From: Eubacterium sp. UBA3279
Lineage (GTDB): Bacteria; Bacillota; Clostridia; Lachnospirales; Lachnospiraceae
Assembly (NCBI GenBank): GCA_002361775.1
Contig: DETV01000048.1
Coordinates: 2,186 to 66,185 of the forward strand
DNA: 64,000 bases
Direction: 5' to 3'
Part shown: piece after piece, positions 7,814 through 21,519 of the stretch
Layout of the letters: each line of letters begins with the position of its first letter
How positions within the stretch are numbered: the first letter of the stretch is position 1
Program-made: the position numbers and the translations under genes
Notes under the pieces: model-generated
The model's input: the letters and a program-made list of their open reading frames with translations, nothing else
What the model was told of the DNA's origin: nothing
The model's database searches: none

Positions 7814-8698
7814 TTATCTTTCATAATCTTTTGAGCGTGTCTGCTTTTTCTTATACAGTTCATCGGACACACGGGAATGAACATCAGCCATCGCATTTCT
7901 CGTCTTGGATAGTTCAAAACGAATGTCCTTCGGCTCTTTGTTTGCCAGCTTATCCGGAATACGGTTGATGGCAAAATTCTGTGTATCAATCCCATACTTC
8001 TTGCAAAGCATATATCCGATACACACCGCCTGAAAGCCCGTATCAGAACGACTGTAACTGTCGCTGTTGATGGAAAGCTGTGCGTGTCCCAGTTCCTGTG
8101 CTACGCACTGTGCAACCGCTACGCTGTCTCCCACATCACGCTTTACATACAAGGTCTGTTCCTCATTATTGTAAAACGCCGCCATATTTGGATAGGGGAG
8201 GTCGTTTGTTGCTTCTACATTCACAGGAGAAGAATCAAGCATTGTGGTAATCAGTGCTTTCGGGTCACGATTAGCTGTCGGTGCAGGCGGTCGTTTCCCA
8301 TTGGTCTGTGCCACATCAAACACTTTCTTCACATTGTAGGAAATGCCTGTTGTTCCGTCACGCTTTGCATATTCCACCGGTTCAAGAATGGATATGCTCT
8401 TAGCACCTTTTGTAATTTTAATGTTGTCTTTGCTCCAGTCATCAAAATCTTTAAGCTGTACCGCCTGCGGATACTGCTTGTAAATCAAAAGTGCGTTGAC
8501 TGCCGAATATCTGTCAAGTCGGCTCTGTGTATCAAGGAACGCTTTGAATTTCTCCGGCGAAGATACAATCTCTTTCGCCGCTTCATCCGCAAGCTGATAC
8601 ACAGCGTCTTTCTCGGCTCGTTTCTTCTCAGCATATTCCTCTTTGGAAAGTCTCGGTCGCTGACCGCCTGCTTTTGCAGGAGTAAAATTTTCTGTCAT
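7814..8698 (-). CDS. ArdC-like ssDNA-binding / anti-restriction protein
   Basis: RYSAVNALLIYKQYPQA...FDDW...KGAKSISILEP N-terminal ArdC motif; C-terminal AQELGH (HEXXH-like, first His replaced). Confidence 0.7.
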   Translation of the reverse strand: MTENFTPAKAGGQRPRLSKEEYAEKKRAEKDAVYQLADEAAKEIVSSPEKFKAFLDTQSRLDRYSAVNALLIYKQYPQAVQLKDFDDWSKDNIKITKGAKSISILEPVEYAKRDGTTGISYNVKKVFDVAQTNGKRPPAPTANRDPKALITTMLDSSPVNVEATNDLPYPNMAAFYNNEEQTLYVKRDVGDSVAVAQCVAQELGHAQLSINSDSYSRSDTGFQAVCIGYMLCKKYGIDTQNFAINRIPDKLANKEPKDIRFELSKTRNAMADVHSRVSDELYKKKQTRSKDYER

Positions 8699-8703
8699 TG
8701 TAA

Positions 8704-9510
8704 TTACCTCTCTTTCGGTTTCTTGGATTTTGTTTTTGGCTGTTGGTGTACCGTCTGCTTCGGTACAGAAGGATGCTTTGCCTTATCTGTTTCCGGCTCT
8801 TTGCGTTCTGCTTCTTTCTGCTGTTTCGCCTGAGCCTTATAGCGGTCGAGCTTTTCCTTTACCGATGGCTTCTTCTGTCTGTCAACAACAGTACCCTTAT
8901 CAGTTTGCATATCTACCGGCTCTGAGTTTTGCCTTGACGGAGGGTTTTTGTCCGTTTTGGCGGTTGTGGGGTTTGACTGTGCGTTTTCCTCTTTCTGAAG
9001 TGGTTTTCGTACAGCTTCCTCCGTGATGATTTCATTCTTGGATTTTGTCGGCTTATCTTTTTCCACGGCTTCTCGTTTTTCAACCGCCTTCTGCGATTCT
9101 GTTACGATTGCCGCCTTATCCACCTTACCGAGTTCAAATCTCTCAACGATTCTCTGAATTTTAGAAGCGTCCTCCGCACGTGCGATAATATCAATCGGGA
9201 CATTATCTCCCCTTGTATTCTTATCTCGGAGAACACAATAGAGAACACCGTAGCGTTTTGCCTGTTCGGTGAATTTCTTCAAGTCCTTATTCGGAATAGA
9301 AAACACTTTCAATTCTTTGCCCGATTTAATCATATTGGTAAGACGGGCTTTTCCTCTGGTCTTGTTCGCCTGCGTTGCTTCCTGTTTTAATACGGAAGCA
9401 AGAAGAATTGCGATATTCTTTGCGGCTGAACCGGTAAGTCTTGCAGCAACTTCAAAGCCTTCAAGGGATAACCTGACGACCTGTTCGGCTGCGTCACCTG
9501 AATTTGTCAT
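8704..9510 (-). CDS. PcfB family (DUF3801) protein
   Basis: MTNSGDAAEQVVRLSLEG start after AAAGGAG; KRYGVLYCVLRD motif. Confidence 0.8.
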   Translation of the reverse strand: MTNSGDAAEQVVRLSLEGFEVAARLTGSAAKNIAILLASVLKQEATQANKTRGKARLTNMIKSGKELKVFSIPNKDLKKFTEQAKRYGVLYCVLRDKNTRGDNVPIDIIARAEDASKIQRIVERFELGKVDKAAIVTESQKAVEKREAVEKDKPTKSKNEIITEEAVRKPLQKEENAQSNPTTAKTDKNPPSRQNSEPVDMQTDKGTVVDRQKKPSVKEKLDRYKAQAKQQKEAERKEPETDKAKHPSVPKQTVHQQPKTKSKKPKER

Positions 9511-10858
9511 TTCGCTTTTGCTCCTTTCGCTGTTGTTTTTCTTCTTCGGCTCTGATTGTTTCAAGGTTCTGCTCCATAACCTTTGACCTCTCGGCAATGT
9601 CGTTACAGAGTCGAACCTCTTTGTTCAGTTCCCGAATTTTGTCGCTTACCGTCGAAATCTGTTCTTTGACCTTAGACAGCTCATCGTCACTCATCTTTGT
9701 TCTTGCTTTTTTTCGCAGGTGCGTTCTGTCGTCATTCAATGTTTTAATTTGACCTTTCAGCGACTCTTTATATGAGAAAAGCTGCTCGTCCGTAGAAATA
9801 TTTTCTCGTCCGAGCAGCCTTGTCTCTGCTGTGATTTTATCCAGCTTCAATAAATCCTCTTTCAAAAGATAGTGAAGCCTTGCTGTATTCTGTTTTTTAT
9901 ATTTTGGCAGATAACCGAGCCTGTAACAGTAATGCAGATACAAGCCATACAGTCCGCCCACTTTTTTGATTTTATTTTCTCTTGTAGGCAATCGGTACTG
10001 CCTGATAACCACCGTCTGCTTTGCAAACGGAACTATGCGTACTCTCTGATTTTCCATAAGCCTACGCCTGATTGCTTCCTCGGTATAATCTTCTCCGAGA
10101 TTTTTAAGTCGTATGGGTTTCGTGTACCCTTTCGGTACAATCGTCCAATATTTCCGGCTCTCGCTTAGACAATGCTCATATCCCATCTGCGTAAGTGCGT
10201 AGTCAAGACTTCTGATATTTGTGCTGTGGGCAATCGCTTCATCTATGGCTTCTCGCACCATAGAATATCTGGTCGGCATTCCCGCCTGTTCCTGCTTATA
10301 GTAGTAAGAGGATTGCTTACTGCGATTCGGATTCGGATTGTAATATAATCCATATTTCTCACAAATACGGTCGGCAACTTTTCTGAACTTAAACCACGAG
10401 GTATCTTGACATCGCTTGCCGTCTTTGAATGAAACAGAGTTAATTACATAGTGGCAATGCAGGTGTTTGGTGTTCAGGTGCGTTGTAACAACAACTTGAA
10501 ATCTTTCCCCCCACACTTCGTTTGCAAACTCCATTCCGATTTTTTGTGCAAGCTCCGGTGTGATATTTTGTTCCTTAAAACTCAAATATCCGTGATAGGC
10601 TTGTATGCCGTCCTCTTTCCCATATGCCTGCTTAACTGAAACAAATTGGTCACGGGCAGTGGTCGGATTACAGTTGATACCTTCCACGAAATATTCCCGT
10701 TCGGTTTTTTCTTCGTCCTTTGCATAGGAGAGAACATCTGCAAGTGCCTGATATTGTTCCTCGGTATAAATATCTGCCGCTGTCTTTTCAGGATTAGCGG
10801 CATAATCAATAACCTGACCAAGCCTTGAATTAACTGCCCACAACTTGCTTACTGCCAT
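9494..10858 (-). CDS. MOBP-type relaxase
   Basis: N-terminal VIDYAANPEKT, AYHGYLSF, 3H motif TTHLNTKHLHCHYVINSVS. Confidence 0.9.
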   Translation of the reverse strand: MAVSKLWAVNSRLGQVIDYAANPEKTAADIYTEEQYQALADVLSYAKDEEKTEREYFVEGINCNPTTARDQFVSVKQAYGKEDGIQAYHGYLSFKEQNITPELAQKIGMEFANEVWGERFQVVVTTHLNTKHLHCHYVINSVSFKDGKRCQDTSWFKFRKVADRICEKYGLYYNPNPNRSKQSSYYYKQEQAGMPTRYSMVREAIDEAIAHSTNIRSLDYALTQMGYEHCLSESRKYWTIVPKGYTKPIRLKNLGEDYTEEAIRRRLMENQRVRIVPFAKQTVVIRQYRLPTRENKIKKVGGLYGLYLHYCYRLGYLPKYKKQNTARLHYLLKEDLLKLDKITAETRLLGRENISTDEQLFSYKESLKGQIKTLNDDRTHLRKKARTKMSDDELSKVKEQISTVSDKIRELNKEVRLCNDIAERSKVMEQNLETIRAEEEKQQRKEQKRNDKFR

Positions 10859-11190
10859 TTCATTTCACTCTTATCGGGTCTTAAATAAGTACGCTCAATA
10901 TCTGCCTGAAACTTATGCCAACGCTCCGCTTCCTTTTTAAGCTGCGGTGCGTCAACAAAGCCAAGAGCGTTTGCTTTAACTGCAAGTTGATTGATGTTGT
11001 TGCCGATAGAAGAAAGCTCACGCATCACATCATAAAATCTTTCGTCCGGCTTTTCCCTCGGCTCATATCCTCGAAGAAGTAAACGGATAAGTCCCGCTTC
11101 ACTCAGGCAAGCCTTTTTTGCCTTCTTCTGCAAATCCTGTGCTTCGTCTCTACTGAACCTAACAATCTTCTGAATGTTTCTTTTCCTCAT
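10849..11190 (-). CDS. mobC: MobC relaxosome accessory protein
   Basis: RHH-like N-terminus, ELSSIGNNINQLA motif, overlaps relaxase start. Confidence 0.88.
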   Translation of the reverse strand: MRKRNIQKIVRFSRDEAQDLQKKAKKACLSEAGLIRLLLRGYEPREKPDERFYDVMRELSSIGNNINQLAVKANALGFVDAPQLKKEAERWHKFQADIERTYLRPDKSEMKWQ

Positions 11191-11317
11191 TTTCTGTGCC
11201 ATCCTTTCTTGTGATGATATAATGGCTGTCCTTATTTATCTGGAACAGACACATAAAAGTAACTCCTATAAAGCCGCCGGCAATTACACCGACGGCTACC
11301 AATGCTATCTCACGCAT
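11159..11317 (-). CDS. Small membrane protein, DUF3789-like (52 aa)
   Basis: AAGGAG RBS; MREIALVAVGVIAGGFIGVTFMCLFQINK...; missed by ORF track. Confidence 0.6.
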   Translation of the reverse strand: MREIALVAVGVIAGGFIGVTFMCLFQINKDSHYIITRKDGTENEEKKHSEDC

Positions 11318-11341
11318 AGCGTTCTCCTTTCTCTTGGGGTA

Positions 11342-11428
11342 TTAGGGGCAACCCCTAACGAGGTATTTGGTAGTGTGCTATCCAAATACACTGCTCGCTA
11401 AGAATATGCAGACTCTCCGGGTTGCCCC
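11342..11428. other. Candidate oriT
   Basis: Non-coding, upstream of mobC-relaxase; hairpins TTAGGGG-CAA-CCCCTAA and GTATTTGG...CCAAATAC; GGGGCAACCC/GGGTTGCCCC inverted pair. Confidence 0.6.
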
Positions 11429-11441
11429 ATCGTCTGTCTTT

Positions 11442-11846
11442 TTATCGCTCCATATCTTTTGAAATTGGTTTATATGCTTTCGCTTCAATGCCCTTGTCCG
11501 TCTGATAAAAACGCTCCGGATACCGGAACTTATCCTCATACTTTTTCATCAAATCCTTTGGCATACTGAGAAAACTCTCCGACTCAATCGGTGCATATGC
11601 GATAAAGAATTTGCCTGCAATAATGTCGAGGATTTCTTTATCATCGGAGTAAATTGCACGATTTAACTCAGCACCATTTATCTTCCCTTCCTCGTTACAT
11701 ACGATTGCAACCTCATCATCAAAAGGCATATATTCCTCAATATATCCGCCTACGGTTTCCTGCATTGCTTCCAGCGTATCCTCAATCTCAATCTGTTTCG
11801 GATACTTGCCCGGTTCAATGAGAAGTACATTTATTTTTTCGCTCAT
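11442..11846 (-). CDS. DUF3846 domain protein
   Basis: VLLIEPGKYP...LEAMQETVGGYIE...VCNEEGKING..LNR signature. Confidence 0.75.
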   Translation of the reverse strand: MSEKINVLLIEPGKYPKQIEIEDTLEAMQETVGGYIEEYMPFDDEVAIVCNEEGKINGAELNRAIYSDDKEILDIIAGKFFIAYAPIESESFLSMPKDLMKKYEDKFRYPERFYQTDKGIEAKAYKPISKDMER

Positions 11847-12799
11847 CTCTCAAAACTCCTTTCATTCTTCTTGGAAATTCCTAATTTGATACACAAAAAG
11901 TCGTTGACATCTTTCCCGCACTTGGGCGGATCGTCAACGACTTCGTATCTGTCTTTTAATTTAATTTTCAGTGCATTTGCCGCCTTTCTTCCGGCAATAT
12001 CATTATCAAAATGAAGCACGATTCTGTTAATCTTCTTGTTCTTTTCAAGCAGATTTTTCAGTGTAACAGGCACTTTGGATTTCTCTGTTTCTCTGTTAGG
12101 CGAATACACGCCGGATAGGGAAACAAGGTTTAATTTGTGCCAATCCCTGCCCTCCATCTTTGCTAATGTGGCATAGGATAACAGGTCAATGGCACATTCA
12201 AACAGGTGTACCTCTGTGCTTTCTTCATTTGTCAGCCTGAAAGAAAACTGCTTCTTACTACCAGTGCAGTCGCCCATAATACGACTGCTGTTTGTTGCCC
12301 GAAATGCAGCATACTTTGCTTCTTTTTTCTCGTCATAACCGATAAAAACAACATTGTGATATGGCAGTGATTCAATGATAAGTTCCTTATCAAGACAGTA
12401 GTTTATGATTTCATAATCAATCCCTCTACTGAAAAGATACTGCGTAACCACATCGTTACTCGGACTTTTTTGCGGTAAAAGAAGTGGCTGATTTTCATAA
12501 CTCCGGCTTTCTTTTTCATAGACCAGAGCAGAAACAGCACACTGTCCCATAATGGTTTCAACCGCTTCAACAAAATCAAGTCCTTTGACTTTGATAAGAT
12601 AGTCAAGGGCAGATTTGCCGCCGATACCTCTCGACCACCACATCCATTTCCCATTTGAAATCTTCAAACTGTCGTGTTCTCTGGTGCAGTAGGTGTTACC
12701 GCTGTAACGGACAAGTTCGCTCGGTTCATAGGTGCGAAGATAGGTCAGCAAATCCATTCTCTTTGCTTCGGTTATGACTTCCGGTGCTATATATGGCAT
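11843..12799 (-). CDS. DUF3991/toprim primase-like protein
   Basis: EHDSLKI, LFECAIDLLSY, LHFDNDIAGRKA, KDVNDFL toprim motifs; start at ATG 12799 after GAGGTG. Confidence 0.8.
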   Translation of the reverse strand: MPYIAPEVITEAKRMDLLTYLRTYEPSELVRYSGNTYCTREHDSLKISNGKWMWWSRGIGGKSALDYLIKVKGLDFVEAVETIMGQCAVSALVYEKESRSYENQPLLLPQKSPSNDVVTQYLFSRGIDYEIINYCLDKELIIESLPYHNVVFIGYDEKKEAKYAAFRATNSSRIMGDCTGSKKQFSFRLTNEESTEVHLFECAIDLLSYATLAKMEGRDWHKLNLVSLSGVYSPNRETEKSKVPVTLKNLLEKNKKINRIVLHFDNDIAGRKAANALKIKLKDRYEVVDDPPKCGKDVNDFLCIKLGISKKNERSFER

Positions 12800-12822
12800 A
12801 TTGACCACCTCACATTTCATTC

Positions 12823-15800
12823 TTATCTTTCATACGACTTCTCCTTTCGCTTCTCGGTCGATTCGCCCTCATCAGGCTCGCCGCCTACAATTTCATTTTC
12901 CTTTTTATCCATATTGAGCAAGATATTCAGCTCGTCCAAACGGGCAAGTTTTGACTTCAATTCTTCTTCCTGCACAAACGGTTTTTGCACTTCTTTCTGT
13001 GCGGTTTCAAACTGATTTTTCGTATCAGCAAGACTGTCCTTTGCTTTTTCAAGGTCGTCTGCAAAACGCTCAACCGCATTATCAATACGAGTGATATTAC
13101 CGAAAACATCATCGCCAAGCGACACCTGTTTGCCGGTTTCTCCCTTGACTGTCACGCAGTAAGAACGCTCTGTTGTGTCAAAAGACAGCTCCGTTTCAAA
13201 TCCTCTGTACTTACCGAGAGGAATAGGTGCAGGACTTGTCATTTCCTTGCAGGCTTCGATAATTGCTTTACCTGCGTCTGCCTTTTCGGAATAAAAAACA
13301 CCCTTAACCTCCATACCGACAAAGCGGTCATCTGTTGGTTTCGGGTGTTGTTTTGCAGTTTTCACATCTGCCGTCAAACCGTTAATTCGGTTTTCAAGAG
13401 AAGTGATACGCTGCGGATAATATTTAATTATCTTATCCTCAAGACTATACTTTTCAGATAGGAAATTGGATTTTAAGAGCTTCAATTTCTGTACCTGAAT
13501 GTCCAAATCCATCTTTTCCTTGATATATGGATTGCCTGTTGCAAGCATTTTAATCTCGGCATAAGATAGTGCGGTTTCATCAATATCTTCCGCACTTCTG
13601 ACGGGAGATTTGCTTGTCATAATCTGTGAAGCGAACTTCTGCTTTCCTTCGACAAGCTGATACAGATATGCGTCAAAGGTCTGCTTGGTAACATAACGAT
13701 AAATTTCCACCTTTGGATTAGAATTCCCCTGACGGATAATCCTACCACTACGTTGCTCCAAATCTGCCGGTCGCCAAGGACAATCAACATCGTGAAGTGC
13801 GATAAGTCTGTCCTGAACATTCGTACCGGCACCCATTTTTTGTGTTGAACCCATTAGCACTCTGACCTCACCTTTACGGACTTTCTGAAACAATTCTTTC
13901 TTCTTCACATCGGTTTCCGCTTCGTGGATAAATCGGACTTCGCTTTCGGGAACACCTCGCTCTATGAGCTTCTTTCTGATGTCGTTGTAAACGGAAAATG
14001 TTCCGTCGTTCTTTGGAGTAGATAAGTCGCAGAACACTAATTGTGCCGACTTTTTATCCTTGTTTTCTTCCCATATGCGATACACATTATCAACGCATGC
14101 ATTGATTTTACTGTTTTCAAAATCAGGCAGCATATCGTTTAACATACGCTGGTCAAGTGCAAGTTTTCTACCGTCGTTTGTTATCTTGAGCATATTATCT
14201 ACGCTTGAATCTACACCTCCGCCACGAACTTTCTCGGCTCGCTCTGCAAGGGAAGCAACCATTTCTTTCTGCATTTCGGACGGTTCAACTGACACATTAT
14301 GATACTCTGCTTCCGGCACAGGGAGGTTAAGCATATCGGCTGTTTTAATGTCTGCAACCTCTTTGAACATCGCCATAAGTTCGGGTAAGTTATAGAATTT
14401 AGCAAAGCGTGTTTTCGCTCTGTAACCCGTTCCCTCCGGCGTAAGTTCTATTGCTGTTACCGTTTCTCCAAATGTGGAAGCCCAAGCGTCGAAGTGCTGT
14501 AATCCGTTTTTCACAAGGGTATTATATTGCAAGTATCGCTGAATGGTGTAAAGTTCCACCATACTGTTTGAGATAGGCGTACCTGTCGCAAATACAGTTC
14601 CTCGTCCGCCGGTAATCTCATCAAGGTATCGGCACTTCATAAAGAGGTCGGAAGATTTCTGTGCTTCTGTCTGTGCAATACCGCCTACATTACGCATTTT
14701 TGTGTAAAGATAAAGGTTCTTGTAATAATGACTCTCATCAATAAAGAGCCTGTCCACACCTAATTCTTCGAAGGTTACAACATCATCCTTTCTGCTTTGG
14801 TCGTTGAGTTTTTGGAGCTTTTGCTTAACGGATTTTCTTGATTTTTCAAGCTGTTTGACAGAGAAGTTTTCTCCTCGGTTACGCTTTAGTTCTGCAATTC
14901 CTTCCGTCAATTCATTCAACTGCTGTTCAAGAATTGCCCTCTGCCTTTCAATCGACATCGGGATTTTCTCAAATTGAGAATGTCCGATGATAACTGCGTC
15001 ATAGTCGCCTGTTGCAATTCTACCACAGAACTTTTTACGGTTCTTTGTTTCAAAATCCTTCTTCGTCGCAACCAATATATTTGCTGACGGATAAAGCTGC
15101 AAGTATTCCGCCGCCCACTGTTCCGTCAGATGATTCGGTACAACAAACAGTGATTTATTACATAGTCCAAGCCTTTTCGACTCCTGCGATGCCGCTACCA
15201 TCTCGAACGTCTTGCCTGCCCCGACTGCGTGTGCAAGCAAGGTATTTCCACCGTAGAGAATGTGTGCAACCGCATTTCTCTGGTGTTCCCTTAATGTGAT
15301 TTCCGGATTCATGCCACTAAATGTGATGTGGCTTCCGTCATACTCACGAGGTCTGATACTGTTGAATTTTTCGTTATACATCTTCTTGAGTTTCTCTCTA
15401 CGGTCAGGGTCTGCCCATATCCAATCCTGAAAACCTTGTTTGATAAGTTCCTGCTTTGCCTGTGCGATTGCCGTTTCCTTTTTGTTGAGAACTGCCTTTT
15501 TCCTGCCCTCATCATCTTCGATATAATCAAAGATACGAACATCTTTCAGGTTCAGCGTTTCCTCAATTATTTTGTAGGCATTGATACGACCTGTTCCGTA
15601 TGTGCTGTACGCTTTGACATTGGAACGGTCATAACTTTTTCCCTCGATATTCCACTCGCCCGTATAGGGAGAGAAGTGAACTTTTATATTCCACTGTGCA
15701 TATCTCGGTGTATCAAGGAACTCAAACATAAACTGCTGGATTATCTCCTGTGGCAGCCAAGTAGCACCGAGCCTTACAGATATTTCGCTTGCAGTCAAGT

Positions 15801-18800
15801 CTTTCGGCTGAACCTTTTCCAGTGCTTCCACATTGATTTTGTAATCTTCAGGATAAAGTTCAGCCGACTTCTTTGCTGTGATAAGTTTCTCCCTGACATT
15901 GCCTGAGAGGTACTCATCTGCCATCAAATACTTTGCCTCAGTTACATTCCCGTACCCGTAAAGCGGATTTAAGAAGATAACGCCTTTCAAATCCTGATAG
16001 AGCGTCTCCTCACTTTTACCTGTGAGTTTTGACATATACTCCATATCAATCTCGGCTTTTTCTCCCATAGAAACAGCAAGTGCTTCACTGGCGGTATCTA
16101 CCTTTTCTACCGGCTTATGTGGCTTAATTGTACGCTTGAAGAACATATCCGCCTTGCGTTCCAGTTCTCCGTTTTCGTTAATGACTTCAAGTGCAGAAAG
16201 CAAGGCAAAGGAACTGTCATCACTGAAAGCAGAGATATTTGCTCTGCTGTTAATCAGTCCGTATTTCTTTGTGTAACTGTCATAAAGACTGTTGAGTTTT
16301 GACTGTTCGGCTTTGATTTCTTCATCCGGATAGTCCTCCGTTTGCAGTTCAATCAGGTTGCGAACGCTGTCACGAACAGCAACCATACCCTTGATTCTGT
16401 TTTCTGCGGTTGCCGATACCTCAACCGGAGTCATACGGGAATTTTCACGGAAATAGATTTTATCATCCACAACCGTGTAAGAAAAATTTCTCACATTCGG
16501 GTCTGCCGGAATAGAATTGTCTTCTTCCTCAAGTTCAGCTTCTACTTCATAATCGTTGATTTCTCCGTGTATATTTGCTACCGCTTCCGATAATAATTCT
16601 GATAAATCGGCATTTTCAAACGGTATACAAGTTACTTCTTCTCCAAAGCGTCCACTTACTGTTTTCATCTCGCCCAGTATCATTTCGGGATGTTCCACAA
16701 AGTACGAGTTCATCGTGATACCGTCATCGGTTGTGCCAAGTTGTACCCAATTAGGCTCTATATCTATGAGCCTGTCTCGCTTTTGCAAAAACAAAATATC
16801 CGATACAACTTCTGTACCGGCATTGCCCTTGAATGTGTCATTCGGAAGTCTGATTGCTCCCAAAAGGTCGGCTCTTTGAGCGATATATTTTCTGACCGAC
16901 GAATTCATTTTATCCATCGTGCCTTTGCTTGTCACAAGTGCCATCACACCGCCGGGTCTTAACTTATCCAAAGCTTTCGCAAAAAAATAATCGTGAATAA
17001 GGAAGTTATACTTATCGTACCTCTTATCAAGTACCTTGAAATCGCCAAACGGAACATTTCCCACAACTCCGTCAAAGAAGCTGTCCGGCACATTGACTTC
17101 TTCAAATCCCTGTGCTGCTATGGATGATTTCTGATAAAGTTGCTGAGCAATCCCTGCCGAAACAGTATCAAGTTCCACACCGTAAATCTTTGTATTTTTC
17201 ATTGACTCCGGCAACATACCGATAAAATTACCGATGCCGCAGGACGGCTCTAACAGATTGCCCTCCTTAAATCCCATCTGCTCCATTGCCTTGTATATAG
17301 CGTCTGTAACTTCTGGAGGAGTATAAAAGGCAGTCAGTGTGCTTTCTCTTGCGGTGGCATATTCTTCGGGAGAGAGTGCGGTATATAACTCAACAAATTC
17401 ATCTGCCCACGCCGAATTGTTCTCATCAAAGGCTTCTGGCAAACCTCCCCAGCCGACATATTTTGACAAAATAAACTGTTCTTCAGGTGTGGCAAATCTG
17501 TTTTCAAACTCACATTCCTTCAGAACCTTTATGGCTTCCATATTCCTGCGAAAGCGTTCTTTCTTGCCTGCCGGCTCTACCGGATTGGAACGCAAATCAA
17601 AAGTATTTCTCTCTGCCATCGGAATATCCGGGTGCAAATCAAAACTCTTGACCTTGCTCGTTTTATTCTCCCACTGCGGTTTTATCGGTTCAGTCTCTTT
17701 ATCATAGCCATTGCCGATACGAATGCCCTCGTTATACATCTCATCGTAGCTGTCAAAGCCATTCTGATTTGCAATGATTTCTCGGTAGTCCTCAATAGGT
17801 ACTTTACCAATATTGGTTGCTACCATATCGCTTCTTTCGGTATTTTCAATGAGTGCTCCCATTGTATCAGTCGTACATTCTGTAAAATCCGGTGTCTGCC
17901 TGAAAGCTGTATCTGCTTCTTCAAACCATTCTGTACCTACATCGGCAAGGGTTTGATTTGCGACACTGCCGAGGTAATCAAAGAACTCATCTGCCGATTT
18001 ATAGTTCTGTGCAGCATTTCTGATTTCATCAAAAGAAAGCGTATTTGTAACATACTGACCGCCGGCACTACTGTCTGGATTAAAGTACATCCAAGTAACG
18101 CTTTCCTGCTCTCTGTTAATGAAAAACGCATCCTCATAATCTGTTTTCTGTTCGGTTTCGGTATCACTATGCGTGATATTTTCGTCTGTATCGGCTTTTT
18201 CTGCGGCAGGTAATACCGTTACCCTCAAGTGGTCATTCAGCGGATTTTCCTGCACTTTGCGGTCAAATTCTCCCCTTGAAAACTCCTTGTTGAACAGTGG
18301 CATTTCTGTATCGTAAAGCATTACTCTCTCATCATCAAAAGATAAGATTTCATACTCCGAAGCACCGATATATACCGTGTCTCCAAGATGATATTCATAT
18401 CGGGTATCAGGTAATTGCTGTTCCTGTGTTTGCTCTGCAAGCAGACTGCGGACATAATCAATCTTCTCTACACGGTTAATCGGGAAACCTACGCTGTCCT
18501 CAAAAGTGACATCTCGCATAGAAACATCGCCGCTTATTTTACCGATACTTTCAATAACAAATCGGCGGGCATCAATCACAATTTCCTTGCCGATAATATC
18601 GTCATCATTTGCCTGCTCTGCTTCTTTCGGTGGTGCAGTAGAAAGAATTTCCCGATTTCTTTTCTGCTCCTCGATTTCTGCCCGTCTTGCTTCCTGCTTC
18701 TCAAGCCACTGCGGATACTGCTCCTTTTCCTTTGGATTTAAGTATCTGTCTGCACGGATAAGCTCCCCGATACGCTTTTCCACCTGTGTCCATTTAAGAT

Positions 18801-20664
18801 TGAGTTTCGGTGCGTCGTTTCCAAATCCTCTTGAAAGAGTTATGCCTTTCCCATCGTGGTTTTCATCAATACCTGCACCGATAATGACAGGATATGAACC
18901 TCCCCAACCGTATTCGTTTTTGAGAAAGTCTGCATTTTCTTTTGAAGATAAACTCTTTTGAAACTGCTCATAGATACGCATTTTACCTTCGTAAATACCG
19001 CTTCCACGAGTCAGAACTGCGTCGATAATCTCCTGAGAAAAAGTAAAGGCAGAGGTTTTGTTTTCCTCTGCCTGACCGTCTAATATGAAGCTCATCTGTC
19101 CGTCTACCGACGGTAGCGGTTTCATTCTATCATTTAATTCTCCCAAAAGACGCATTGCTTCAAAGTGCTGTGCAATCACACTCCAATTATAGAAACTCTG
19201 TGCAGTTCTGCTGTCATAATGACCTTCCCAAAGATGCAAAACATTCTGAAATGTCTTGTAACCTACGGTTCTCCCATCCTCTAATGTGAGTTCGGTATAG
19301 TCGTTATTGAAGATACTCTTGATATATTCGGTACGGGTATCGCTATCGGTATTTCTCTCATAGAGGTCTTTAATATCTTCAAGAGAAGCCGATAAATGCG
19401 GTGTAGTACCGAGTATCTCTCGGATAGTATCATCCCCACCGAAAAACGGCAGGCTCTTATCCTCGTTGCTTCTGTCGTAATACTCTAAACGAATATTACC
19501 TGTGCTTTCACGATTTCCTGTGCCGAGTTCCTGATGTTGTTCATCAAGCGAATCCAATTCATCATATCGTCCGCTTTCATCTGCTCCGTCAGCCCCTCTT
19601 GCTGTGCCATCTGCCTGATAAGCGTTTCTTCCAGTTTGGTCGCCCTCTGCTGTACTTCTGACAGATGACTGCTCAGTATCCCTTTCGTCAGGAGATTGTA
19701 ATACTGAACCTTGTGGTGTTCTTTCAGATAAGTTCTCCTCATCTGCGACCATTTGCCCTGAATGACCTCCGGCTGTTCGGGCAGAGTCAGGTTCGGAAGA
19801 TTGTAATCCCCGACCATCGTGTATGTTATCTCGTTCATAATCGCTACTCCTTTCGTCTTTGATGTCTTTATTGTATTCCGGTTGCCTGTTTGCTTCAATT
19901 ATGCGATTTTGACGGTTCAGTGCCATCACTGTTTTTGAGATTTCCGAAAGTCCCATCTCTGCAATATCGCTTGTGGCAAATCCCAGAGCGTTCATCGTAT
20001 CCTGCGTATTGAAATTTGTAACATCTCGAAAATCATCTACTTCAAAGTATTCGCTGGTATCAATTCCAAGCCTTGTCATAATCATATATGCCACGCTGTT
20101 TGTGACAACCTTTTTATACAGACTTGCAATCATCGTTTCGTCAAGTCCTTCTAAGAAACTGTCCTCGGAAGCATATATGAGGTCATTAAGATAATCCGGC
20201 AAATTATCTTCGGCGGCATTTTGTGCGGCACTCATAACTGCTTCGCCCAAAGTGACTTTGTTATCCAGTTCTCCGAATGTGCTTTCAAGCGTTTCAATAA
20301 CATCGTCTGTGTATTCGTTCCTCATATTCCAAAGTGGAACAGGACGGGAATATCTGCTCTCGTGAGTATCGGAAATATCGAAGTAGTGGATAAGTCTTTG
20401 TCTTGCTCTGTTTTCATCGGCAAATACCGCAATACCTCTTGCCCCTCTATTTACCCAACGTCCAAAACTCCTGTTCCAACGCTCGATTTCAAGAACTGCC
20501 GTAGCGTCCGGTCGCTGTGCATATATAAGCAACTGCTCATCGTATCTTAGCTTATAATTCCTACACGCAGACTGCAAGAAATTCCGCCAGTTCTGCGGAT
20601 TGGAAACAACCGTCTTGCAGGTTCTGTCATAGAGTTCGGATATGAGTTCGTATTTTCTTGACAC
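12823..20664 (-). CDS. Giant ArdC-N / N6-adenine methyltransferase / SNF2 helicase fusion (DarB-like)
   Basis: LLEPSCGIGNF and GNVPF MTase motifs; AHAVGAGKT, FIDESH, ATGTPISNS, QRSGRIIRQGN helicase motifs; ArdC-like N-terminus. Confidence 0.88.
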   Translation of the reverse strand: MSRKYELISELYDRTCKTVVSNPQNWRNFLQSACRNYKLRYDEQLLIYAQRPDATAVLEIERWNRSFGRWVNRGARGIAVFADENRARQRLIHYFDISDTHESRYSRPVPLWNMRNEYTDDVIETLESTFGELDNKVTLGEAVMSAAQNAAEDNLPDYLNDLIYASEDSFLEGLDETMIASLYKKVVTNSVAYMIMTRLGIDTSEYFEVDDFRDVTNFNTQDTMNALGFATSDIAEMGLSEISKTVMALNRQNRIIEANRQPEYNKDIKDERSSDYERDNIHDGRGLQSSEPDSARTAGGHSGQMVADEENLSERTPQGSVLQSPDERDTEQSSVRSTAEGDQTGRNAYQADGTARGADGADESGRYDELDSLDEQHQELGTGNRESTGNIRLEYYDRSNEDKSLPFFGGDDTIREILGTTPHLSASLEDIKDLYERNTDSDTRTEYIKSIFNNDYTELTLEDGRTVGYKTFQNVLHLWEGHYDSRTAQSFYNWSVIAQHFEAMRLLGELNDRMKPLPSVDGQMSFILDGQAEENKTSAFTFSQEIIDAVLTRGSGIYEGKMRIYEQFQKSLSSKENADFLKNEYGWGGSYPVIIGAGIDENHDGKGITLSRGFGNDAPKLNLKWTQVEKRIGELIRADRYLNPKEKEQYPQWLEKQEARRAEIEEQKRNREILSTAPPKEAEQANDDDIIGKEIVIDARRFVIESIGKISGDVSMRDVTFEDSVGFPINRVEKIDYVRSLLAEQTQEQQLPDTRYEYHLGDTVYIGASEYEILSFDDERVMLYDTEMPLFNKEFSRGEFDRKVQENPLNDHLRVTVLPAAEKADTDENITHSDTETEQKTDYEDAFFINREQESVTWMYFNPDSSAGGQYVTNTLSFDEIRNAAQNYKSADEFFDYLGSVANQTLADVGTEWFEEADTAFRQTPDFTECTTDTMGALIENTERSDMVATNIGKVPIEDYREIIANQNGFDSYDEMYNEGIRIGNGYDKETEPIKPQWENKTSKVKSFDLHPDIPMAERNTFDLRSNPVEPAGKKERFRRNMEAIKVLKECEFENRFATPEEQFILSKYVGWGGLPEAFDENNSAWADEFVELYTALSPEEYATARESTLTAFYTPPEVTDAIYKAMEQMGFKEGNLLEPSCGIGNFIGMLPESMKNTKIYGVELDTVSAGIAQQLYQKSSIAAQGFEEVNVPDSFFDGVVGNVPFGDFKVLDKRYDKYNFLIHDYFFAKALDKLRPGGVMALVTSKGTMDKMNSSVRKYIAQRADLLGAIRLPNDTFKGNAGTEVVSDILFLQKRDRLIDIEPNWVQLGTTDDGITMNSYFVEHPEMILGEMKTVSGRFGEEVTCIPFENADLSELLSEAVANIHGEINDYEVEAELEEEDNSIPADPNVRNFSYTVVDDKIYFRENSRMTPVEVSATAENRIKGMVAVRDSVRNLIELQTEDYPDEEIKAEQSKLNSLYDSYTKKYGLINSRANISAFSDDSSFALLSALEVINENGELERKADMFFKRTIKPHKPVEKVDTASEALAVSMGEKAEIDMEYMSKLTGKSEETLYQDLKGVIFLNPLYGYGNVTEAKYLMADEYLSGNVREKLITAKKSAELYPEDYKINVEALEKVQPKDLTASEISVRLGATWLPQEIIQQFMFEFLDTPRYAQWNIKVHFSPYTGEWNIEGKSYDRSNVKAYSTYGTGRINAYKIIEETLNLKDVRIFDYIEDDEGRKKAVLNKKETAIAQAKQELIKQGFQDWIWADPDRREKLKKMYNEKFNSIRPREYDGSHITFSGMNPEITLREHQRNAVAHILYGGNTLLAHAVGAGKTFEMVAASQESKRLGLCNKSLFVVPNHLTEQWAAEYLQLYPSANILVATKKDFETKNRKKFCGRIATGDYDAVIIGHSQFEKIPMSIERQRAILEQQLNELTEGIAELKRNRGENFSVKQLEKSRKSVKQKLQKLNDQSRKDDVVTFEELGVDRLFIDESHYYKNLYLYTKMRNVGGIAQTEAQKSSDLFMKCRYLDEITGGRGTVFATGTPISNSMVELYTIQRYLQYNTLVKNGLQHFDAWASTFGETVTAIELTPEGTGYRAKTRFAKFYNLPELMAMFKEVADIKTADMLNLPVPEAEYHNVSVEPSEMQKEMVASLAERAEKVRGGGVDSSVDNMLKITNDGRKLALDQRMLNDMLPDFENSKINACVDNVYRIWEENKDKKSAQLVFCDLSTPKNDGTFSVYNDIRKKLIERGVPESEVRFIHEAETDVKKKELFQKVRKGEVRVLMGSTQKMGAGTNVQDRLIALHDVDCPWRPADLEQRSGRIIRQGNSNPKVEIYRYVTKQTFDAYLYQLVEGKQKFASQIMTSKSPVRSAEDIDETALSYAEIKMLATGNPYIKEKMDLDIQVQKLKLLKSNFLSEKYSLEDKIIKYYPQRITSLENRINGLTADVKTAKQHPKPTDDRFVGMEVKGVFYSEKADAGKAIIEACKEMTSPAPIPLGKYRGFETELSFDTTERSYCVTVKGETGKQVSLGDDVFGNITRIDNAVERFADDLEKAKDSLADTKNQFETAQKEVQKPFVQEEELKSKLARLDELNILLNMDKKENEIVGGEPDEGESTEKRKEKSYER
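19485..19838 (-). CDS. TnpV family protein, nested in alternative frame of the giant helicase gene
   Basis: GAAAGGAG RBS 8 nt before ATG; MNEITYTMVGDYNLPNLTLPE..GKW..MRRTYLKEHH..YYNLL..G.L..HL..EQMKADDMMNWIRLMNNIRNSAQEIV is the TnpV pattern. Confidence 0.8.
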   Translation of the reverse strand: MNEITYTMVGDYNLPNLTLPEQPEVIQGKWSQMRRTYLKEHHKVQYYNLLTKGILSSHLSEVQQRATKLEETLIRQMAQQEGLTEQMKADDMMNWIRLMNNIRNSAQEIVKAQVIFV

Positions 20665-20679
20665 TGCTTTTGCACCTCC

Positions 20680-20961
20680 TTATCGTTCTTTTTCTTTGCT
20701 TTTTGTCGGTTTTGTCTTTTCCTTTCCGGCTGGTTCAACGGTATGACCGTTTCTTTCACACAGCTCTGCAAATTCACAGATATGAAAAACATCCGAACCG
20801 ATTTGTGTATGATAATCGTCGATATACTTACACTCACGCTCCAGTGTTGTTCCGTTTCTTGTGTGAATCAGGATTTTATCTCCGTCATTTACACGAAATT
20901 TCTCGTTGTATCCACTGTCAATAAAGCGGATACTGTTTTCCTTATGTTCCTGACTGCTCAT
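20680..20961 (-). CDS. Small ICE hypothetical protein
   Basis: GGAGGTG RBS; IRFIDSGYN...CKYIDDYH..IG...FHICEFAE module typical of Clostridiales ICE proteins. Confidence 0.7.
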   Translation of the reverse strand: MSSQEHKENSIRFIDSGYNEKFRVNDGDKILIHTRNGTTLERECKYIDDYHTQIGSDVFHICEFAELCERNGHTVEPAGKEKTKPTKSKEKER

Positions 20962-21169
20962 CCGTTCCACCTCCCAAATATGAGAACAACTTGTTGGCTT
21001 TGGTTTCTTTCTGAAGTTCGATGATGAGTGCCATATCCGGTATCGTAATACCCGGAATCTTCAAAATACTCTCCATATCAAGTTGTTGTAATTTCTTTTC
21101 CGTATTACAACCGGAATCAAACAGCTTCGCCATTAATTTTGTTTTCTGTTGAAATGTCGGTTTGCTCAT
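20942..21169 (-). CDS. Hypothetical protein
   Basis: GGAGG RBS, overlaps next gene. Confidence 0.65.
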   Translation of the reverse strand: MSKPTFQQKTKLMAKLFDSGCNTEKKLQQLDMESILKIPGITIPDMALIIELQKETKANKLFSYLGGGTDEQSGT

Positions 21170-21181
21170 CTTGCGTCCTCC

Positions 21182-21472
21182 TTATTCAATTTCTATGACT
21201 ACACGAATACTGCTGTCGCAGCCACTGCACTGTCTGGAAAGTTCCGGGAACAAAGATTGCACCCTCTGTCTTGACCTGCGGATAGTTTCAAAGCACGGTA
21301 AACCGTAGCCCTTGTAGTTGTTGACTATATCCTCAAGAGATAAGTCGCCGACTTTCAAATAACTGTATCGGTTGTAATAGCAGAGGATAAGCTGCATATC
21401 GTCATACCTTGTTTCAGGGCATTCTCTGAGGATTGCAAGCACCTTGCTGTCAACCGTTCTCTGCTTATTCAT
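21182..21472 (-). CDS. Hypothetical protein, possible helical DNA-binding fold
   Basis: GGAGGTG RBS before ATG 21472; VLAILRECPETRYDD...ETIRRSRQRVQ. Confidence 0.6.
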   Translation of the reverse strand: MNKQRTVDSKVLAILRECPETRYDDMQLILCYYNRYSYLKVGDLSLEDIVNNYKGYGLPCFETIRRSRQRVQSLFPELSRQCSGCDSSIRVVIEIE

Positions 21473-21485
21473 AAAGCACCTCCAT

Positions 21486-21519
21486 AAAGTAAATGGACGG
21501 AGTTTTTTCGCTCCGCCCA
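21486..21519 (-). terminator. Intra-operon intrinsic terminator-like hairpin
   Basis: Minus TGGGCGGAG-CGAAAAAA-CTCCGTCCA then TTTACTTT. Confidence 0.6.

Follow-up and report, generated by a model that had tools for sequence, protein, structure and literature searches.

The window examined here is a stretch of 64,000 nucleotides (nt) from Eubacterium sp. UBA3279 (Lachnospiraceae; contig DETV01000048.1, positions 2,186 to 66,185). Its minus strand carries a giant open reading frame (ORF) for a polyvalent protein of an integrative and conjugative element (ICE), and a complete gene of the tnpV family lies inside this ORF in another reading frame (Table 1). An initial annotation, made from the letters of the DNA, had described the smaller gene as a complete ORF of 117 codons on the same strand as the giant helicase gene, with a strong ribosome-binding site of its own and with the helicase frame passing over the same bases as a linker without a stop. 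All of these features were recovered. The nested ORF begins at 19838, its ATG is preceded by GAAAGGAG (19854-19847) at a spacing of 8 nt, and the giant frame stays open across the overlap, where it reads ...DGRGLQSSEPDSARTAGG...DELDSLDEQHQELG...

Table 1. Features of the giant ORF and of the gene nested in it, in window coordinates (aa, amino acids; CDS, coding sequence; pLDDT, predicted local distance difference test; SD, Shine-Dalgarno sequence).
Feature	Position	Strand	Remarks
Giant polyvalent ORF, 2613 aa	12823..20664	minus	GTG start at 20664; uninterrupted by stops
N-terminal ArdC-like domain (N-domain), residues 1-261	19882..20664	minus	AlphaFold pLDDT ~90
Promoter-like site TTGAAG (19898-19893), 17 nt, TACAAT (19875-19870)	19870..19898	minus	Ends 31 nt upstream of the tnpV ATG
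Predicted disordered linker, residues 262-401	19462..19881	minus	Contains promoter-like site, SD and entire tnpV overlap
SD, GAAAGGAG	19847..19854	minus	8 nt upstream of the tnpV ATG; giant frame reads Glu-Arg-Ser
tnpV CDS, 117 codons plus TAG	19485..19838	minus	+1 frame of the giant ORF; ATG at 19838, TAG at 19487-19485
Next folded domain, residues 402 to ~513	19126..19461	minus	AlphaFold pLDDT 80-88 from 402; starts right after the tnpV stop

The TnpV-like identity proposed for the nested product was borne out by a full-length match to the Pfam family TnpV (PF14198; model positions 1-111 of 111, E 2.6e-40, 137.3 bits with a cut-off of 27). A six-frame search of the genome with the same model gave the nested copy 136.5 bits, and the product also matches PHROG 24764 (E 8e-36). 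Its AlphaFold model (pLDDT 89) consists of a beta-hairpin at residues 6-15 followed by five helices.

An overlap of this kind could be produced artificially if a missing or extra base, introduced during sequencing or assembly, joined separate genes. Contigs in Logan from four further public runs, one of which is possibly the window's own sample, match 19300-20100 with zero substitutions and zero indels. The initial annotation had named a stop or frameshift in reads, splitting the large ORF, as evidence that would count against it, and the contigs show neither. There is therefore no hidden frameshift or stop dividing the giant ORF, and the layout is not a sequencing artefact. The layout is also present in more than 70 genomes of other species; an artefact is thus refuted, and its probability is negligible.

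A TnpV search of species-representative genomes identified 16 close loci from many Clostridia genera, with TnpV proteins 53-96% identical. At all 16, the giant frame is free of stops across tnpV and extends ~840 nt upstream and >3 kb downstream of it; the third frame across tnpV contains 11-16 stops. In the window and the 15 close loci that hold the whole gene, tnpV has 117 codons and the alignment is gapless. Searches with the giant protein gave the same picture. Its first 275 residues were found in 67 of 399 sampled Clostridia genomes, where the matches nearly always open a frame of 2000-3900 aa and almost never a stand-alone ORF of ~280 aa. Full-length tnpV directly follows the N-domain, in identical phase, at 29 of 30 loci with this domain. 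Among 40 additional loci at greater distance, with N-domains 24-57% identical, 34 have it in that phase. Four of the six distant loci negative with the hidden Markov model (HMM) carry a TnpV-like ORF of 94-138 codons in the alternative frame at the equivalent position, and only L078 and L080 appear to be without one. In total, ~75 unique relatives across Clostridia share one layout and one phase, from N-domain identities of 100% down to ~24%. This conservation of both frames in identical phase upholds the earlier description of the locus as a true, fully nested dual-frame overlap.

The number of stops to be expected in the giant frame was simulated by fixing the TnpV protein of each locus and drawing synonymous codons from flanking codon usage. 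The simulations predicted ~8.1 stops in the giant frame over tnpV, with P(0 stops) <=0.0075 at every locus; none was observed in 73 of 74 unique loci and one in the remaining locus, L039. Stops in the third frame (7-23) matched the simulation. In 20 free-standing tnpV genes of the sampled genomes, the giant-equivalent frame contains 2-11 stops, with no zero-stop case; for the two stand-alone copies of the window's own genome that are read on the right strand (contigs C68 and C4), the counts in this frame are 4 and 7. With 73 of 74 loci free of stops against ~8 expected, only a requirement for read-through explains the open giant frame.

This result bears on a reading in which tnpV is real but translation of the giant ORF does not continue through it. 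Three products would then be made, namely an ArdC-like protein, TnpV and a methylase-helicase with a start of its own, and the giant frame across tnpV would be open for some other reason. Consistent with such a reading, RefSeq and ENA place the helicase start 500-1700 codons downstream, one locus has a stop in the overlap (L039) and a nonsense variant falls directly after the tnpV ATG (L023). The annotated starts, however, differ between near-identical loci, as expected from gene-caller artefacts, and the N-domain is almost never a stand-alone ORF in the Clostridia sample. A database search with the N-domain only did return many short proteins, including dozens of N-domain-TnpV chimeras of exactly 393 aa, but those inspected were contig-end fragments, frameshift variants or a nonsense variant, the point mutants having a downstream frame that is still open. 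The nonsense variant (P0103, from L023) is a CGA-to-TGA change, after which the remaining giant frame is open. Weighed against the ~8 stops that are avoided, separate translation of three proteins is improbable.

Automatic annotation had been predicted to keep only one of the two frames, which proved correct in substance: RefSeq and ENA truncate the giant ORF, and other calls drop TnpV, most public gene calls listing the giant ORF alone. In the RefSeq record NZ_OY725736 (NZ_OY725736.1, locus L094), for which the PLSDB gene table used is incomplete, a 110-aa TnpV is annotated and a 'SNF2-related protein' starts at 11271; the true ORF spans 8175-15839 and encodes 2554 aa. ENA calls that include TnpV (L115-L119) start the helicase at 10574, 10658, 11889 or 13335, or miss it. 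Such calls remove 500-1700 codons from the giant ORF, at one locus miss it altogether, and assign no gene to the ArdC-like N-domain and to as much as 4 kb of coding sequence.

Selection on the two frames was compared from nucleotide diversity. Pairwise diversity at codon positions 1, 2 and 3 is ~0.29, 0.22 and 0.55 in the giant-ORF flanks, and 0.24, 0.20 and 0.40 at the corresponding positions of the tnpV frame within the overlap. Position 3 of tnpV is thus the most variable site of the overlap, and the least variable (0.20) is position 3 of the giant frame, whose codon periodicity returns to normal in the domain that follows tnpV. Frame-specific conservation, the lack of which had been listed as grounds for rejecting the nested gene, is therefore seen as a switch of periodicity to the tnpV frame. 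The lower wobble diversity of tnpV (0.40, as opposed to 0.55 in the flanks) fits an additional constraint against stops. At the amino-acid level, pairwise identity averages 67% in TnpV but 49% in the linker frame. Conserved-looking linker motifs such as VLQSPDER are likely by-products of tnpV constraint, because they overlie the most conserved motif of TnpV, YYNLLTKG. The overall pattern points to the TnpV amino-acid sequence as the main target of selection in the overlap, with the giant frame mostly just kept free of stops.

These comparisons also speak to the possibility that only the giant ORF is expressed and that the tnpV frame, left over from a captured gene, is an open fossil without translation of its own. 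The reverse simulation, with the linker peptide fixed, gave 2.1 expected stops in the tnpV frame, against none observed in 73 of 74 unique loci, and a median P(0) of 0.10 per locus; the tnpV frame would thus fairly often be open by chance, and the giant ORF is all that most public gene calls contain. A fossil is, on the other hand, at odds with the higher identity of TnpV than of the linker frame, with a periodicity that follows tnpV across the overlap, and with full-length HMM matches that persist at N-domain identities of 24-40%. Confident folding of the TnpV model, and retention of the SD and ATG with a rare Arg codon (described below), also argue against it. We consider it highly improbable that tnpV is a fossil.

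Initiation signals belonging to the nested gene itself, as had been proposed, are conserved at the nucleotide level in the arrangement GAAAGG(AG)-N8-ATG. Of 78 unique loci, 76 have an SD-like motif ahead of tnpV and 73 have ATG as its start codon. GAAAGG itself occurs in 60 of the 78, in 58 of which it is read as the giant-frame codons GAA-AGG; AGG makes up only 16% of Arg codons in the flanks. The sequence of the SD-ATG spacer varies freely among loci.

An SD-like sequence inside a gene can also promote frameshifting, prfB and dnaX being examples. If ribosomes made a programmed +1 shift close to the tnpV SD, besides or instead of initiating internally, the product would be an N-domain-TnpV fusion of ~393 aa, the length of the dozens of database proteins that join these two domains. 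The two such chimeras examined, however, switch frame at different places, P0022 in mid-overlap and P0121 ~40 codons upstream of the ATG, a pattern that looks like scattered indels or sequencing errors. In many loci the tnpV frame is closed by stops only 21-30 nt upstream of the ATG. The spacer is not conserved in sequence and no conserved shift site was seen, without a formal slippery-site scan, and SD-N8-ATG is the canonical geometry for initiation. A programmed frameshift is accordingly improbable.

The tnpV start probably also has an internal sigma-70-type promoter of its own, as judged from the sequence TTGAAG-17-TACAAT. A TTGnnn-17/18-TAyAAT site is found again in relatives, 31-52 nt before the ATG; its spacing is constant and its spacer sequence variable. 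Scores of >=9/12 are reached in 36 of 75 loci, compared with 6.9% of the control windows taken from these loci. Assembled metatranscriptome contigs extend across the region in relatives and show that these are transcribed, at a resolution below that of transcription starts or translation. An Rfam scan of 18500-21500 returned zero RNA families.

Two observations on contig depth concern the same stretch. In one mouse-gut metatranscriptome (run X1), a contig with a word depth of 85.8 spans the N-domain and tnpV (19422-20704) and stops ~60 nt past the tnpV stop; contigs further downstream (18600-19300) have depths of ~4-5. Such a drop may come from a shorter, abundant transcript, or simply from differences between strains and breaks in the assembly. 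In three of four runs (X16, X17 and X18), assembly contigs break at 19507-19546, in the 3' part of tnpV, and at 19846-19878, around the SD and start, and depth at both places is two to three times higher. The breaks and the raised depth indicate that several element copies in those samples share both stretches as identical nucleotides.

On this evidence, bases 19838-19485 are very probably dual-coding, with both frames functional genes. That both proteins are made is inferred from the sequence, and several points weigh against this reading. The giant frame is sometimes broken in public data by nonsense or frameshift variants, as in L023, L039 and the 393-aa chimeras. The RNA evidence consists of assembled metatranscriptome contigs, which carry no strand information and possibly include DNA. 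The promoter-like motif shares its bases with giant-frame residues that are themselves conserved (R-I/T-I/F-A and Y-N), so that its recurrence may partly be protein constraint, and in the loci at the greatest distance it can no longer be made out; for these two reasons the promoter is rated probable and not proven. Finally, TnpV gave zero significant matches in PDB or BFVD by fold or by sequence, leaving it with no structural relative there.

The giant protein was modelled with AlphaFold from a 52-sequence alignment. Residues 402-513 are confident, like the N-domain, and residues 262-401 have a pLDDT of 22-43, those overlapped by tnpV (~280-398) being below 30. Since the low-confidence residues are modelled as disordered between confident domains, the overlap falls exactly in an inter-domain linker. 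In related loci the overlapped linker is 13.6% hydrophobic, compared with 32.8% in the flanks. The motif KDERSSDYER at the end of the N-domain was considered as a remnant of an old C-terminus; it is not independent evidence, because its Glu-Arg pairs result from the tnpV SD (GAA AGG) and first codons (ATG AAC GAG, read one base earlier). In the arrangement we propose, ribosomes starting at 20664 would read the overlap as an unstructured linker rich in Gly, Ser, Asp, Glu and Arg, which would join the ArdC-like N-domain to the methylase-helicase body of the ICE polyvalent protein. Other ribosomes would start independently at the conserved GAAAGGAG-N8-ATG and produce a folded TnpV of 117 aa, probably from a short-leader transcript of the internal promoter as well as from the long operon mRNA. 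The disordered linker would tolerate changes driven by tnpV as long as stop codons are excluded.

In the 2613-aa protein the ArdC-like N-domain is followed by the disordered linker, a further domain, an Eco57I-type N6-adenine methylase (Pfam Eco57I, residues 1175-1268) and a helicase (SNF2/ResIII, 1789-1982; Helicase_C, 2207-2313). The best PDB fold match of the N-domain is ArdC of plasmid R388 (6sna; E 0.01, probability 0.97-1.0, template modelling score 0.42 on target), and it is 25% identical over 114 residues (E 2e-9) to the product of a stand-alone ArdC-like gene at 7814-8698 of the same window. A Pfam search of the domain at E up to 1 gave zero matches, and the ArdC-N (PF08401) cut-off is therefore not reached. 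We call the domain 'ArdC-like' by its predicted fold, not as a proven member of the ArdC-N family. Several unrelated effector and enzymatic domains in a single polypeptide, on a conjugative element, make this a polyvalent protein as defined in PMC5512222. In syntenic relatives, the giant gene adjoins genes for ParB, a SpaA-type adhesin, TOPRIM/DUF3991, YodL and a relaxase. Full-length homologues are abundant in public gene calls, with >8000 candidates scored (for example P0248, 2613 aa, 3139 members).

Variation in and around the giant gene was also recorded. The same genome holds a second methylase-helicase of the giant type, a partial paralogue (contig C45:559-6144) that starts at the contig end and is 60% identical over residues 1010-2589. 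At L116:15124-16938, a near-identical copy of the giant gene is interrupted in its helicase part by a group II intron reverse-transcriptase/maturase gene (RVT_1, Intron_maturas2, HNH). Immediately before the giant start, the 231 nt at 20705-20935 of the window are replaced by 3 nt (ATC) in relatives from two RNA runs, an indel polymorphism in the region of small ORFs that separates the giant gene from the adhesin gene.

Five further, stand-alone TnpV matches are present in the window's own genome (contigs C68, C4, C93, C53 and C11; L001-L003, L005 and L006), and none adjoins a homologue of the giant gene. The copies on C53 and C93 have a small gene module in common, and that on C53 adjoins a 683-aa large serine recombinase, like Tn4451-type elements. 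The nested protein resembles TnpV of Tn4451 and Tn4453 in its full-length homology, similar length and location on mobile elements of Firmicutes. The classical genes differ in being free-standing, often next to a large serine recombinase, and in an N-terminal extension of the form MxKSIFEEMGGTY...

A passage of PMC2475636, citing Lyras et al. (2004), gives TnpX alone as sufficient for transposition of Tn4451, and PMC3158075 states the same. A role for TnpV as an Xis-type excisionase was considered and is unsupported: no excisionase was found among PDB fold matches at E up to 10, so that the old Xis-like proposal gains no support from the structure search. As members of the family are also carried by Tn4451-type mobilisable elements and by plasmids, TnpV may, with low confidence, be a non-essential accessory factor for mobile-element transfer or establishment.

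Insertions into the giant gene itself were also seen. Integrative and mobilisable elements (IMEs) of S. suis that carry tnpV insert into snf2 genes of ICEs (PMC9815147). In a relative, at L107 (G171:C11:196772-199504), the homologue of the giant gene is cut short at ~residue 2321, within the C-terminal helicase part, and an inserted element that begins with a free-standing tnpV starts ~40 nt from the break; among the database homologues of the giant protein, many stop at 2021 or 2025 aa, without Helicase_C. Because this insertion and the shortened homologues resemble the S. suis IMEs, TnpV-bearing elements seem to target the very gene that hosts the nested tnpV. The 11-bp repeat TTTTGCGGACA, which flanks the S. 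suis IMEs in snf2, occurs in the window not above chance and is absent at the overlap.

Two scenarios were considered for the origin of the overlap. In one, an ArdC-like gene and a methylase-helicase gene became a single gene through read-through across a tnpV that lay between them. The second, which we hold to be rather unlikely, has TnpV arising in the linker of an ancestral polyvalent gene, where constraint was absent, and leaving it at a later time as the free-standing tnpV of Tn4451-type mobilisable elements and of plasmids. In a tree of 76 nested and 24 stand-alone TnpV proteins, the two groups are separated by a single change, with weak support for the split (39). Midpoint rooting places the stand-alone clade within the nested diversity, and the deep nested branches are long. 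A codon-usage comparison aimed at telling which frame is older gave near-uniform values for both overlap frames (-0.011 and 0.022), compared with 0.128 in the flank. An ancestral unfused state, with separate ardC-like, tnpV and helicase genes, was also looked for; the short N-domain proteins of the database contain no convincing lineage of this kind.

To our knowledge, bacteria have few long same-strand nested genes with good support, and the majority of the accepted examples encode tiny peptides. The nested comS has 46 codons and GndA 36, and tnpV, at 117 codons, is much longer than either. The out-of-frame nested genes comS in srfAB of Bacillus subtilis, Rz1 in Rz of phage lambda and GndA in gnd of E. 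coli (cited in PMC12350097 and PMC11230408) are like tnpV in that a small protein is encoded from its own start, in another frame of the same strand, wholly inside a larger gene; the host of comS is, in addition, also a giant multidomain gene. Unlike these three, tnpV belongs to a widespread family that is also free-standing, is the more strongly constrained of the two frames, coincides with a disordered linker between domains and is conserved across a bacterial class. Viral overprinted genes (PMC8227390, PMC6195259) share the long same-strand dual coding and a partner rich in disorder; the present case differs in residing on a bacterial conjugative element and in that the disordered partner is the linker of the host gene, not the small gene. 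The giant protein itself is of the type described by Iyer, Burroughs, Anand, de Souza and Aravind (2017; PMC5512222), with an ArdC-N-type N-terminus, a methylase and an SNF2 helicase in a single giant ICE polypeptide. The text of that paper contains neither TnpV nor any gene nested in or overlapping polyvalent proteins, and a literature search for TnpV with overlapping genes found no earlier description of the layout. Internal initiation in another frame is a known mechanism; this case differs in the length of the nested gene, its family, the dominance of the nested frame over a host frame that is a disordered linker, and its class-wide persistence.

The tnpV locus is among the best-supported long gene-within-gene cases in bacteria: an overlap of 354 nt in which a folded protein of 117 aa and an inter-domain linker would be encoded together, persisting down to ~24% N-domain identity. 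It illustrates how the cost of dual coding can be borne by a linker that is disordered, and offers a model for the co-evolution of two frames. The layout also permits a direct test of the direction of overprinting; if TnpV was indeed born in the linker, overprinting would be the source of a widespread family of bacterial proteins. In practical terms, it exposes an annotation fault, since pipelines either drop TnpV or cut 500-1700 codons from a very common ICE gene of the gut microbiome. As a clue to its function, the TnpV family is tied by this layout to the anti-restriction and establishment module of conjugative elements.

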